Part shown: positions 14,559 through 25,792 of the stretch, piece by piece
How positions within the stretch are numbered: position 1 is the stretch's first letter
Layout of the letters: the number at the start of each line of letters is the position of its first letter
From: Dictyostelium discoideum
Lineage: Eukaryota
Direction: 5' to 3'
DNA: 64,000 nucleotides
Assembly: GCA_000004695.1 (NCBI GenBank)
Contig: CM000152.2
Coordinates: 4,032,001-4,096,000 of the forward strand
Position numbers and translations under genes: made by a program
Notes under the pieces: model-generated
The model's database searches: none
What the model saw: only the letters and a program-made list of their open reading frames with translations
What the model was told of the DNA's origin: nothing

Positions 14559-14833
14559 ACCATTTATATATGAAATAAAATAAATCAGGACCAATATACA
14601 CTGGTTTTAAAAAATAAATATATTTAAAATACTTGTATTACAGTTTATTATTTTTTAATTTTCATTTGTTGTCATGAAGCAATGTTAAAAAATAAGATAT
14701 TAAAATATATATAATGTTAAATTATCCCCATTATTATATTTATTTTTTAATTATTTTTATGGGTTATATAAAACAATTCCCAAAATATTCAAAAACCTGA
14801 TGTTTTTGTTTATTTATTTTTATTATTTTATTT

Positions 14834-17800
14834 TTATTTATTTATTATTAGATGAACTAAATATTTTTGATTTAAAACTCTTTTATTTTTTGGTGGAAAA
14901 TCAATAGAATCAATTAGTAAATTTGACAATTGAAAATTTGAAGAATCTATTGATTTTAAAACCATACCACATAAAAAATTCAATTGAAATAATGATGATT
15001 GATTTGTTTTTGTTCTCACTTTTAATAAAGATTGACTATTTTTATTAGATGATAGAATGTTTTTGAAAATTTGGGTGAATCCTTTTCCAGAAGCTACACA
15101 AAGACAATTATAAAGATGATTGATTGTATTATCATTTAAATTTTCAATAAAATAATTAATAAGTAATTCAAGATAATAACTTGAACATATATTATATAAA
15201 TAAGATTCTTTAGTAAAATTTGGGAAATATGTTGAACTAAAAATTTCAGGTATTTTATCAAAAAGATAAAAAATATCCTCAAACCTATCTAAATAATAAA
15301 GACAAATAAATAACATTCTGGGTGAAATTATAAAATCAAATGATTTTGTTTCACCAATAATAAATTGTCCAACTTCTTCACTATTTGTTGTTGATATTGT
15401 TGAGGTGAGTGGAATAAAATCATCTCTACCATAATATAAATGTGGAATATTGAAATTACCTTTAACTTGATATAACTTTGGTTCAATTGATTCTTTTGAA
15501 ATATTATTAAAAATTAATTTGATAAGGTTTGGAATTTTATTTGGTGATGGAGCACCATATATAATATCAGAAAATCTAAATGGTTGTTTAAATATTTCAT
15601 TTGGTAAAAAGAAATTGATCACAACTTCATTACCATTTTCTAAAGACCAACCAAATATATTTAACAAAGTGGTATTACAATAATAACCAGAATCAAAAAA
15701 AAATGAATATAATAAAGGTTTTGAAATTGCTCTTTTTAATTGATCCAATAATATATTTACATTATATTTTTTTTCATTATTTTTATTTCCATTTGTGAAC
15801 CAATTACTATATTTTACAAAATATAATTGTAACTTTTTACCAATACTTTCCATTATTTTTTCAATATGATCAATAATATTAACATGATTATTATTCCAAT
15901 TTTGATTTTGATCATCAAATAAAGTAGTTTCATTTCTATAATTTTCAAAAAAAAAGTCGACAATTTCATTTTTATTAATATATTGAAAATTGATTGATAT
16001 AATATAAGAGATACTTGGAAATTGTGTTTTTGAGTTTTGAGCAAGTTGTAACTTTTTTATTGTTTTAATTAGATGGTCAATTAATTCTGTATCGTTAGTT
16101 GAAAATACAACTCTACAAAATGAATTAAAACTTGTAAAATTAAAATTAGATCCAATATTTTGAAATGAGACTCCATTTTCAATATCTAAAATTTTTGATA
16201 CTAATTCTAATCTTTGATTTCTTTCAAGTTGTTGATCAATTAAAATACTTTTAAAAAATATTAAACAATCATCATATTTCTTAATAAAAAATCCACAAAA
16301 TATTTCATATAATTGACTAACATTCATTTTTTTTTTAAAATATAAATAATAATGAAATGGTCTCATTAAATTTCTATCATGTTTTCCTTCTTCAATAATT
16401 TTTAAAAATAAATAAATTGATTTATAATATTTTTTAATAATATCTTTTAAATCACTGCAATTATTATTGTTTGTTATTAATATTGGAGTGGTGGTAGTGG
16501 TTTTTGTTTGATTCAATAGATTTTTAATTGTCGAATTTAATTGATCATCAGTAAAATGAGAGAATTGAATTTCATTTAATTCTAATATTAATTGATCTAA
16601 TTTTTCAATATAATCCAATATTTGTAGTTGTCGTCCCTCTCGTTGTTGTTGTTGTTGTTGTTGTTGTTGTTGTTGTTGTTGTTGTTGTTGTTGTTGTTGT
16701 TGTTGTTGTTGTTGTTGCTGTTGTTGTTGTTGTTGTTGTTGTTGTTGTTGTTGTTGTTGTTGTTGTTGTTGTTGTTGTTGTTGTTGTTGTTGTTGTTGTT
16801 GTTGTTGTTGTTGTTGTTCTTGTTCTTGTTGTTCTTGTTGTTGTTGTTGTTGTTGTTGTTGTTGTTGTTGTTCTTGTTGTTGTTCTTCTTGTTGTTGTTG
16901 TTGTTGTTGTTCTTGTTCTTGTTGTTGTTCTTGTTGTTGTTGTTCTTGTTGTTGTTGTTGTTCTTGTTGTTGTTGTTGTTGTTGTTGTTGTTGTTGTTGT
17001 TGTTGTTGTTGTTGTTCTTGTTCTTGTTGTTGTTGTTTTTGTTCTTGTTGTTTTTGTTGTTCTTGTTGTTGTTGTTGTTGTTGTTGTTGTTGTTGTTGTT
17101 GTTGTTGTTGTTGTTGTTGATGTATTTCTCGTATTTCTTTAAATTTTGTAGGATCGACTAATAATTTATATGATTTTATAAGTCTTTTAAATTTATAATC
17201 AAATGATAGACTTTCTGATAAATCAATATTAGAAAATCGTTGTTTAATATGTGATGTTGGAATAGCATTAATTGATTTTAAATAATTGTAAATTTTTAAA
17301 TTATTATATGAAAATACATTAAAGAATGATGGATTAATATGCATTTCTATACTTTTTTTTAAAACATCTGAATTTATTTTAAAAAATTTAATAAATTGAT
17401 CTAATGCTACTAAATTTTCATTTAAAATCATTCTTTGAATCCATAGATCAATATTTTCATCAAATTGGAAAATCAACGATTTTGTTGATTGCATTGTTGT
17501 TGTTGTTGATGATGATGAAGAGAATGTTGAAAATAATGTAGTATAAAATGAAATTGTTTCATTATCTTTTTTTTTTAATGTTTTAATAATATTTACAATA
17601 TCATTTACACTTCTGATTATTTGATGATTAATATTTCCTTTAATATTATCTTTTATTATTTCTAATGAATTACTATAACTTTTTAAAAAGTTTTCATTTA
17701 TACCAATTAAATCATGATAACCAAATTGTTTACTTTTAAAATTTGAAAATATATTTTTAAAAATGATCATATTTCTAAAAGCTTTCCAAAAATAAATTTC

Positions 17801-25419: not shown

Positions 25420-25792
25420 CTTTTTTTTTTTTAAACTGTAAAAAAGTGTGCAGGAGCAAAAAAAAGAAATTTTTTTTTTTTTTTTTTTTTTTTTTAAAAT
25501 TAAAAAATAAAAAGGCAAATTATTTTTTTTTTTTTGAAAAATATGACGTCAACATGCTCGGTAAACTAGAAAAAAAAGAAAAAAAAAAAACAATTGACCA
25601 AATATAGTATCTTGGACCATTTTCAAAAATCTTTTTTTAGAATTCCACCTACCTAAAAATTCAAGATAATATAATATAAAATAAAATAAAATATAATAAA
25701 ACAAAATAAAATAATATAAAACAATCTTTTTTTTTTTTTTTTTTTTTTCTTCTCCCCCAATACATATGTTTTGTTATAAAATTTATAGTTTA

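Follow-up and report, generated by a model that had tools for sequence, protein, structure and literature searches.

The window analysed here, a 64,000-nucleotide stretch of chromosome 3 from the Dictyostelium discoideum AX4 reference, contains a tandem array of three UPF0746 paralogs, two of which are open; very probably, the third has been recently inactivated, the 5′ third of the genes has undergone gene conversion and the array is subject to birth-and-death evolution. This bears out the core reading of the initial annotation, namely three tandem SAP-domain genes, two of them open and the third recently pseudogenised. All three copies lie head to tail on the minus strand. Copy 1 (CDS 14834–18127) is an open reading frame encoding 1097 aa and corresponds to Q54UG3/DDB_G0281095; copy 2 (CDS 19226–22087) encodes 953 aa and carries no lesion relative to its orthologs; and copy 3 (22498–25419) extends over 2,922 nt, or 973 codons, in one frame that is interrupted by two premature TAA codons and ends in a tail frameshift. 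The spacers measure 1,098 bp between copies 2 and 1 (18128–19225) and 410 bp between copies 3 and 2 (22088–22497), with a MITE-like element in the longer one, in agreement with the values of 1.1 kb with a MITE and 0.4 kb given at the outset. These CDS coordinates, together with an inter-copy nucleotide identity of 90–92% over approximately 2.7 kb, which is far above chance, establish the head-to-tail arrangement of the three units. Paralogous homology reaches from 10–70 nt ahead of the ATG to approximately 35 nt past the stop codon; the ~250 bp of 3′ flank that had been ascribed to each unit is thus not part of it. Set beside the original estimate of approximately 85–90%, nucleotide identity of copy 3 is 90.3% to copy 1 and 91.2% to copy 2, and its protein identity is 81% and 85%, respectively. 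The description of copies 1 and 2 as intact stands insofar as both frames are open, with the qualification that a 1-nt deletion in copy 1 (approximately 14870–14875, near 14872, minus strand), evident from the nine-sequence alignment, has rewritten its ~11 terminal codons. This lesion had been overlooked, as had a 2-nt deletion near position 22539 in copy 3.

The locus is an ordinary, already annotated and catalogued instance of gene-family birth and death. Copy 1 fits the published description of the Swiss-Prot entry Q54UG3 exactly, with 146 Q in residues 329–521 and a 58-Q run. An acidic ORF adjoining the array fits DDB_G0281091. The exact protein sequences of copies 1 and 2 had no match in a 15-billion-protein collection, an Rfam search over 13–27 kb returned no match, and a tRNA scan found none in the region. 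One annotation pipeline merged copy 3 with copy 2 into a 1,854-aa model. The practical value of the locus is limited, and it opens no long-standing question.

The comparison set comprised the syntenic loci of two wild isolates (L001 and L002, which we infer to be CR116C/OT3A); an independent assembly of a laboratory strain produced with a different sequencing technology (L003, 99.69% identical to the window and probably AX2 (AX2-214)); and a cryptic sister species with two copies (L004). L001 and L002 hold three copies apiece. In neighbor-joining (NJ) trees built with simple distances from nine discoideum copies and the two L004 copies, bootstrap support was 100% for each orthologous clade and for the monophyly of the nine discoideum copies against the two from L004. 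An assembly artefact, whether a single gene over-expanded or alleles misjoined into three units, has a negligible probability: all that speaks for it is that AT-rich repeats are generally hard to assemble, whereas the copies are 9–10% apart, their spacers differ, each is paired in both L001 and L002 with a separate positional ortholog (bootstrap 100%), and the same array is reproduced in L003. Three independent assemblies therefore refute it, and the original view that these are real tandem copies is upheld.

Sequence comparison across this set places the triplication before the split between AX4 and the wild isolates and after the split from the cryptic sister species. Two duplication events, both local and within the D. 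discoideum lineage, gave rise to the array. The phrase "young gene family" must be withdrawn, as the family is not young; the local triplication alone is fairly young, and even this predates the AX4/wild-isolate split. L001 and L002 both have an open ortholog of copy 3 (975 aa and 965 aa, respectively), and all copies in these two isolates look intact except L002 copy 2, which has a 10-nt frameshifting deletion that automated annotation hid behind a fake modelled intron; for branch omega calculations, this frameshift was patched by +1 nt. Of the two L004 copies, one is frameshifted and the other is 5′-truncated. In the Nanopore-based sequences, the frameshifts (L002 copy 2 and L004 copy A) may stem from misassembly. 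Lesions hit different copies in different lineages, from which we infer birth-and-death evolution of the array. An extra segment of ~3.2 kb in L001 and L002 was considered as a fourth, decayed copy and rejected, as it resembled neither the family nor any other part of the window.

The body of copy 3 retains a single reading frame over 2,922 nt, and every indel within it preserves the frame. Stop 1 is a TAA at codon 88 (25156–25158, minus strand), where the ancestral codon is CAA, and stop 2 is a TAA at codon 518 (23866–23868, minus strand), where the ancestral codon is GAA. Both TAA codons reported earlier, at about 25167 and about 23875, are thus real, each lying approximately 10 nt from the position first given. 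Among nine aligned copies, the stops occur in copy 3 only; each is a clean base substitution outside repetitive sequence rather than a miscounted homopolymer. Additionally, the 2-nt deletion (approximately 22536–22541, minus strand) shifts the last ~8 codons and lengthens the frame by 6 codons. Copy 3 therefore has the features of an unprocessed pseudogene, with a tandem position, two nonsense codons plus a tail frameshift where eight other copies code, and a motif upstream of the gene that recurs at the L001 ortholog. An intron that skips the stops was rejected, as the codons concerned are coding in the eight other copies and align codon for codon.

The initial annotation had allowed that the stops in copy 3 might be sequencing errors, a concern that L003 answers differently for the separate lesions: it retains stop 2 together with the 2-nt tail deletion and has CAA at stop 1. 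The underlying difference lies at position 25158 (T in the window, C in L003); away from low-complexity sequence, no other substitution occurs over 21.8 kb. Stop 1 may be an AX4-specific mutation or a reference error. This flags a likely discrepancy between reference and strain that bears on annotation of the third copy. One could go further and regard copy 3 as a still working gene whose premature stops are all errors of sequencing or assembly in the reference. The lone substitution at stop 1, the purifying selection on the copy 3 branch and the frame-preserving indels in the copy 3 body would all be in keeping with this, but two assemblies made with different technologies agree exactly on stop 2 and the tail deletion, and both stops are clean substitutions outside repeats; we regard a working copy 3 as highly unlikely.

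Recent inactivation remains the preferred reading and is consistent with the substitution patterns. Omega on the copy 3 branch was 0.40 (bootstrap 0.24–0.66), compared with 0.49 for the orthologs, whose frames are open in L001 and L002; a value near 1, indicative of neutral evolution, was not found on this branch. Polarised nonsynonymous-to-synonymous counts around stop 2 were indistinguishable, at 8:6 upstream and 9:5 downstream. With no neutral phase detectable at this omega, inactivation is therefore recent, and the word "freshly" as first applied to the pseudogenisation is apt, given an omega not above that of the orthologs and alike ratios on both sides of stop 2. Family-wide dN/dS is high (0.4–0.8), which weakens any test of relaxed constraint. 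Copy 3 was held by purifying selection through most of its history. In the proposed sequence of events, it was then truncated very recently in the NC4-derived laboratory lineage via GAA>TAA at codon 518; besides the 2-nt tail deletion, a further nonsense mutation at codon 88 (CAA>TAA) is probably confined to the AX4 reference.

A different fate for copy 3 deserves consideration: where codon 88 is CAA, it may be a truncated allele encoding a 517-aa protein in which the SAP motif and conserved N-domain are complete and the helical body is partly retained, with function kept or altered. Such a product could, for example, be dominant-negative or act as a DNA-tethering module alone. In L003, the frame is indeed open from the ATG to codon 518. 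An upstream motif, GCATGTTGACGTCATA, which includes the palindrome TGACGTCA and is a candidate promoter element, lies ~125 nt ahead of the copy 3 ATG (25542–25557, minus strand) and is also found upstream of the L001 ortholog. Furthermore, constraint is strongest in the 5′ third, which is still exchanging sequence with presumed functional paralogs, and some family members naturally lack part of the architecture (P0007, P0008 and P0010 are without SAP). Constraint is nevertheless indistinguishable on either side of stop 2, a better fit to a very recent stop than to prolonged use of a shortened protein, and stop 1 of the AX4 reference would leave only 87 aa. We therefore consider a functional truncated allele unlikely and favour recent inactivation of copy 3.

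Divergence between the copies is not simple, as their 5′ thirds have been homogenised. Region-specific trees and diagnostic sites delimit a conversion tract in the 5′ third of copy 3 (24457–25419, minus strand; aa 1 to ~320), with equivalent minus-strand tracts in copy 2 (approximately 21128–22087) and copy 1 (approximately 17168–18127). In the 5′ tree, the copies cluster by lineage with 98% bootstrap and eight sites are fixed by genome; in the 3′ tree, they cluster by ortholog with 100% bootstrap and no site is fixed by genome. These sequence patterns show a 5′ third (aa 1–320, SAP included) that appears homogenised between copies by gene conversion and a 3′ two-thirds that follows orthology. 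Within the latter, aa 601–790 form one hypervariable segment with an omega of ~1 or higher (~1.3). The array thereby offers a compact example of domain-limited gene conversion in tandem genes.

Two insertions distinguish the AX4/AX2 lineage. The first is a CAA/GAA microsatellite (16642–17123, minus strand), identified by TRF and alignment, that encodes a polyQ/E insert of ~190 aa. It is present only in copy 1 of this lineage and is missing from the 965-aa L001 and 963-aa L002 orthologs; its pattern of Q/E interruptions differs between the window and L003. The second is a MITE-like insertion of ~620 bp (18277–18895) in the spacer between copies 2 and 1, a spacer that is only ~330 bp in L001 and L002, as against 1,098 bp in the window. 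Its terminal inverted repeats (TIRs; 18277–18401 and 18771–18895) are 125 nt long and 78% complementary, and the element folds as a long hairpin (z = −9.8). It is found in the window and L003 and is absent from L001, L002 and L004, constituting an insertion polymorphism. No credible ORF was found inside the element, with one spurious low-complexity ORF of 81 aa overlapping its edge, and the TIR core occurs at a single site within the 64-kb window. The flanks are poly-A/T, and the empty-site alignment is therefore ambiguous with regard to a target-site duplication. TIRs, small size, lack of a transposase ORF and insertion polymorphism are all features of a MITE.

Turning to the encoded proteins, SAP is a motif of ~35 aa with a helix-extended-helix structure that binds DNA, preferring AT-rich or scaffold-attachment DNA. 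The motif is encoded at 17897–18028 in copy 1 (aa 34–77; minus strand), scoring 28.4 bits against PF02037 and 31.1 bits against PF18953, and at 21860–21985 in copy 2 (aa 35–76; minus strand), with 27.4 and 29.7 bits, respectively. The Pfam gathering cut-offs are 23.9 bits for PF02037 (SAP) and 26.3 bits for PF18953 (SAP_new25), such that copies 1 and 2 are above threshold and copy 3, with 21.8 and 22.9 bits, falls just under it and is clearly homologous; the Pfam HMM check thus supports the original designation of SAP-domain genes. For SAP, the AF2 model has helices at 40–49 and 58–70 (pLDDT ~76), and among solved structures the closest match by sequence is 2rno, a SIZ1-type SAP domain from rice (query IRSKELQTIAKSLGLPIIGKKQEIYKRIEG). 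Copy 2 matches P0005 (UPF0746 protein DDB_G0280787, Q54UV9) with 100% coverage, 51% identity and an E value of 2e-252, and copy 1, as Q54UG3, likewise belongs to UPF0746. A search of 1.84 billion proteins gave at least 46 family representatives at 50% identity; all sources looked up were D. discoideum, D. purpureum or another Dictyostelium species.

For the remainder of the protein, the AF2 models are all-alpha. The full-length model of copy 2 has a pLDDT of 61 and a pTM of 0.39, and a Foldseek search with it against the PDB gave nothing under an E value of 0.007; structure searches with the body returned generic helical-repeat matches only. Among 20 distant family members, SAP was the only domain detected by Pfam. 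No Ank HMM exceeded its gathering score, the best being Ank_5 with an E value of 0.0039 in 4 of 13 members, and Ank_2 in P0018 reached 21.2 bits against a cut-off of 27.3. The large C-terminal region, with all Pfam families under threshold and structure matches generic, is thus as devoid of recognisable homology as first described. On these models, an orphan body of alpha-helical repeats is predicted to follow the SAP motif. A probable role for the basic N-terminus and the SAP motif is to tether the protein to AT-rich nuclear DNA or chromatin, with a protein-interaction scaffold as the likely role of the helical-repeat body. What is documented here is an uncharacterised family, so far apparently Dictyostelium-specific, that pairs a SAP motif with such a body. 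A literature search found UPF0746 mentioned nowhere and a single mention of DDB_G0281095, and no UPF0746 member was found in the supplements of one life-cycle proteome.

UPF0746 proteins might be modular, fast-evolving nuclear factors, with a conserved SAP/N-terminal "anchor" kept uniform by conversion and a C-terminal helical-repeat "recognition" module that diversifies (omega of at least 1 at aa 601–790) and comes and goes as copies are duplicated and lost; on this view, the AX4/AX2 difference at stop 1 would be one laboratory-era step as a dispensable member decays. We consider this improbable. If true, the anchor/recognition architecture would resemble that of genetic-conflict genes, for instance those that restrict transposons, endosymbionts or AT-rich DNA of foreign origin.

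Compared with known systems, the array proteins share the SAP motif with the nuclear proteins SAF-A/hnRNP U, PIAS/SIZ1, Ku70 and Acinus, but they are without SPRY/AAA, PINIT/SP-RING, a Ku core or an RRM, and the remainder is unrelated. No categorical difference separates them from the UPF0746 family, of which the array copies are members (NCBI name "SAP DNA-binding domain-containing protein"); the common architecture comprises a basic/acidic N-terminus, SAP, a Q/P linker, a FWKxFRN domain, poly-T loops and a helical C-terminal body. The spacer element resembles the thug-type and MITE-like elements of Dictyostelium in its size of ~620 bp, long TIRs, lack of a long ORF, hairpin and lineage-specific occurrence. 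The element thug-S is named among the Dictyostelium non-autonomous DNA transposons (PMC4894637). Finally, the tgr arrays of D. discoideum are a birth-and-death tandem family with partial gene conversion (PMC12745789). The SAP array is far smaller (2–3 copies), and its flanks are syntenic and alignable, unlike the "unalignable swaps" of tgr; its proteins look nuclear or intracellular, whereas tgr proteins are at the cell surface, and it gives no evidence of balancing or diversifying selection beyond the omega of ~1.3 in one segment. The likeness to these arrays on the same chromosome lies in lineage-specific duplication, copy numbers that differ among close lineages, pseudogenised or fragmentary copies and a high dN/dS in part of the protein.

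Three paralogous units lie on the minus strand of this very AT-rich window (GC content ~21%) between 14.8 and 25.4 kb, confirming the head-to-tail arrangement described in the initial annotation. These are c1 (14834–18127), an open frame of 1097 aa; c2 (19226–22087), an open frame of 953 aa; and c3 (22498–25419), a disabled copy that runs for 2,922 nt in one frame from the homologous ATG with no internal frameshift. The copies share 90–92% nucleotide and 81–85% protein identity. Paralogous homology extends ~35 nt past the stop codon and 10–70 nt ahead of the ATG, so the duplicated unit is essentially the coding sequence; the ~250 bp of 3′ flank earlier assigned to each unit is unsupported. 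The frame of c3 is broken by two premature minus-strand TAA codons, stop 1 at 25156–25158 (codon 88) and stop 2 at 23866–23868 (codon 518), both present as first reported but ~10 nt from the positions then given. In an alignment of nine copies (c1–c3 and three each from the syntenic loci L001 and L002), each stop is a single-base change found in c3 alone: the other eight copies carry CAA or CCA at the stop 1 site, and all eight carry GAA at the stop 2 site. A 2-nt deletion ~40 nt before the end of c3 shifts its last ~8 codons and lengthens the frame by six. Both c1 and c2, previously called intact, are indeed open, but the same alignment reveals a 1-nt deletion at the 3′ end of c1 that rewrites its last ~11 codons. 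Additionally, c1 harbors a 482-bp CAA/GAA microsatellite, coding for ~190 Q/E residues, which is missing from the wild-isolate orthologs.

For comparison, four syntenic loci (L001–L004) were drawn from assemblies published by Holland et al. 2025 (PMC12745789). Over 21.8 kb, L003 (GCA_054883475.1) matches the window at 99.69% identity and, judging from the strain list of that study, probably represents the lab strain AX2-214. L001 and L002 share ~93% identity with the window in flanking genes and 97.5–97.9% with each other; they probably correspond to CR116C and OT3A, isolates that are genetically diverged from AX4 yet interfertile (PMC12745789). Each has its three copies in tandem, ordered as in the window and flanked by pseudouridine synthase and G-alpha genes, and their c3 orthologs are open (975 aa in L001, 965 aa in L002). 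L004, from the 'cf. discoideum' cryptic species, has only two copies, one with an apparent frameshift and the other 5′-truncated and missing the SAP region. Copy 2 of L002 carries a 10-nt frameshifting deletion masked by an annotated 68-nt 'intron' (protein P0002); the L002 and L004 lesions were read from Nanopore-based assemblies, and indels there are provisional pending reads. In L003 (12111–18300), the GCA_054883475.1 annotation treats c3 and c2 as one gene model of 1,854 aa, the gene predictor having avoided the stop. This fused model and the L002 'intron' are apparently artefacts of gene prediction near pseudogene lesions.

The loci also differ outside the array. An extra ~3.2 kb separates the pseudouridine synthase gene from the first family copy in L001 (3253–6700), L002 (~3450–6590) and L004 (~4400–6600), and holds a gene of 328–331 aa, with a second of 123–131 aa in L001 and L002. 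Neither the window nor L003 has this segment, and no homolog of it was found anywhere in the window; it was either lost from the lab lineage by deletion or gained elsewhere by insertion. The polyQ tract of c1 (16790–17025) is equally long overall in the window and in L003 but has differently patterned GAA interruptions, either because the microsatellite was reshuffled between lab strains or through noise in the assemblies. A tRNA-Ala(AGC) gene at 35961–36033 is the sole tRNA detected in the 64-kb window.

Turning to the death of c3, branch dN/dS was estimated over 881 shared codons using Nei-Gojobori distances, the three-point method and 300 bootstraps. The window c3 branch gave an omega of 0.40 (95% interval 0.24–0.66), alongside 0.49 (0.31–0.85) for the c3 orthologs in L001/L002, 0.66 (0.45–1.01) for the window c1 branch and 0.71 (0.47–1.23) for the window c2 branch. 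Polarised substitutions on the window c3 branch number 8 nonsynonymous to 6 synonymous upstream of stop 2 and 9 to 5 downstream, with corresponding ortholog-branch counts of 9:5 and 10:5. Neither branch omega nor these counts detect a neutral phase on the c3 branch, and inactivation was thus very recent, in keeping with the earlier description of c3 as freshly pseudogenised.

The initial annotation had also raised the alternative that the stops are sequencing or assembly errors. Base-by-base comparison with L003 was decisive for stop 2, which occurs in both assemblies and is therefore real; presumably the lab strains inherited it from their shared ancestor NC4. Around the tail deletion, too, the window and L003 are identical. 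Stop 1 was not reproduced: position 25158 (L003 12372) is T in the window and C in L003, giving CAA, and is the only substitution that separates the two over 21.8 kb once homopolymer and microsatellite runs are set aside. Stop 1 hence reflects either a mutation in the AX4 line or a mistake in one assembly or the other. The remaining differences (28399, 34085, 35262, 35397 and others) are poly-A/T length changes of 2–23 nt or in-run substitutions, a pattern typical of uncertain homopolymer calls in one assembly or in both.

A neighbor-joining tree of coding sequences recovered each orthologous clade (the positionally matching copies of the window, L001 and L002) with 100% bootstrap support, as it did the monophyly of the nine discoideum copies and the sister pairing of the two copies in L004. 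On the strength of these groupings, the triplication arose in the D. discoideum lineage after the cryptic-species split and before the AX4/wild-isolate divergence. The dS values are ~0.09–0.11 for orthologs, and for paralogs 0.11–0.15 in the window and 0.12–0.18 in L001/L002. In the cryptic species, either a separate duplication took place or the copies were homogenised. Lesions in different copies of different lineages indicate that the array evolves by birth and death, as far as the provisional Nanopore indels allow.

Sliding-window bootstraps along the alignment, and region trees with copy A of L004 as outgroup, gave a mosaic. Orthologous clades have 0% support over the first ~900 aligned columns; from ~column 1600 support is 100% for c1 and c3 and just 25–47% for c2, which reaches 90–100% only from ~column 2100, while c1 falls to 29–35% at ~columns 2530–3219. 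In the 5′ part (aa 1–320, 890 columns), the six L001/L002 copies group together at 98% and the three window copies at 60%; eight sites are fixed by genome in all three copies, and ortholog-diagnostic sites for c1/c2/c3 number 1/0/4. In the 3′ part (1,739 columns), orthologous clades have 100% support, no site is fixed by genome in all three copies, and the diagnostic sites number 22/29/44. Identity in the 5′ tract is 95–97% between window paralogs and 94–96% between orthologs. The most parsimonious reading of these alignments is that gene conversion has kept the 5′ third, and only that third, in concerted evolution, acting after the AX4/wild-isolate split but before the separation of L001 and L002. 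Of the two stops, stop 1 falls within the converted tract and stop 2 beyond it.

Within the spacers, of 1,098 bp and 410 bp, the 'MITE' noted earlier in the longer one corresponds to a ~620-bp MITE-like element (18277–18895) with 125-nt terminal inverted repeats (18277–18401 and 18771–18895). It folds into a long hairpin (z = −9.8) and occupies this site in the AX4/L003 lineage only. The repeat thug-S has been reported as a source of small RNAs (PMC4894637). Upstream of c3, ~125 nt from its ATG, the motif GCATGTTGACGTCATA (25542–25557) contains the CRE-like palindrome TGACGTCA; it occurs once in the window, recurs upstream of the L001 ortholog of c3, and may be a candidate promoter element outliving the coding sequence.

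The only Pfam domains found are SAP (PF02037) and SAP_new25 (PF18953) at ~aa 35–77, both above threshold in c1 and c2; the motif can be aligned with the rice SIZ1-type SAP domain 2rno. No other Pfam domain was found in 20 distant family members. AF2 gave a weak full-length model (pLDDT 61) that is almost all helical, and a better one for aa 405–953 (pLDDT 74.9, pTM 0.65). Structure searches returned generic helical repeats only, with karyopherin/HEAT-type Foldseek matches at E ≥ 0.007; sub-threshold Ank Pfam matches agree with these. Constraint is uneven along the protein (ortholog pairs, c2 numbering): omega is 0.38–0.52 for aa 1–320; 1.33–1.42 in all three pairs for aa 601–790, where pooled counts (Nd 102, Sd 17) give a rough estimate not significantly above 1; and, for aa 791–935, 0.23–0.44 in c2 and c3 and 1.22 in c1. 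As a working mechanism, the basic N-terminus together with the SAP motif would anchor the protein on AT-rich DNA in the nucleus, and the helical-repeat body would act as an interaction scaffold bearing one hypervariable surface.

A profile search run exhaustively against 1.84 billion representative proteins recovered 46 relatives; those whose source was looked up come from D. discoideum and D. purpureum and are all uncharacterised. Many start at a conserved FWKxFRN motif, without SAP. Three paralogs elsewhere on the same chromosome (P0007, P0008 and P0010) form a sub-clade of ~890–906 aa that has lost the SAP-coding segment and kept the remainder, so the motif is dispensable in at least some members. 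No family member is listed in the supplements of one life-cycle proteome. Homologs of c2 were found in Dictyostelium only, the named match being 'SAP DNA-binding domain-containing protein' / 'UPF0746 protein DDB_G0280787' (51% identity, full length). The database matches gave the UPF0746 name for DDB_G0280787 only; we take it to cover DDB_G0281095 too. For the latter (UniProt Q54UG3), a paper on low-complexity proteins reports 146 Q in residues 329–521 and a 58-Q run, and c1 agrees exactly with all three numbers. Two genes away lies an acidic ORF that fits DDB_G0281091, 'acidic nuclear phosphoprotein'. Together, these matches identify the window as part of chromosome 3 of the D. discoideum AX4 reference, where the genes are already catalogued. 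The initial interpretation, a tandem triplication with c3 freshly pseudogenised, holds in substance, and is refined by a date for the triplication, a mosaic left by conversion, a stop 1 that differs between two lab-strain assemblies, and lesions in other lineages. These refinements, useful for annotation, concern an ordinary process in an already catalogued family of unknown function.
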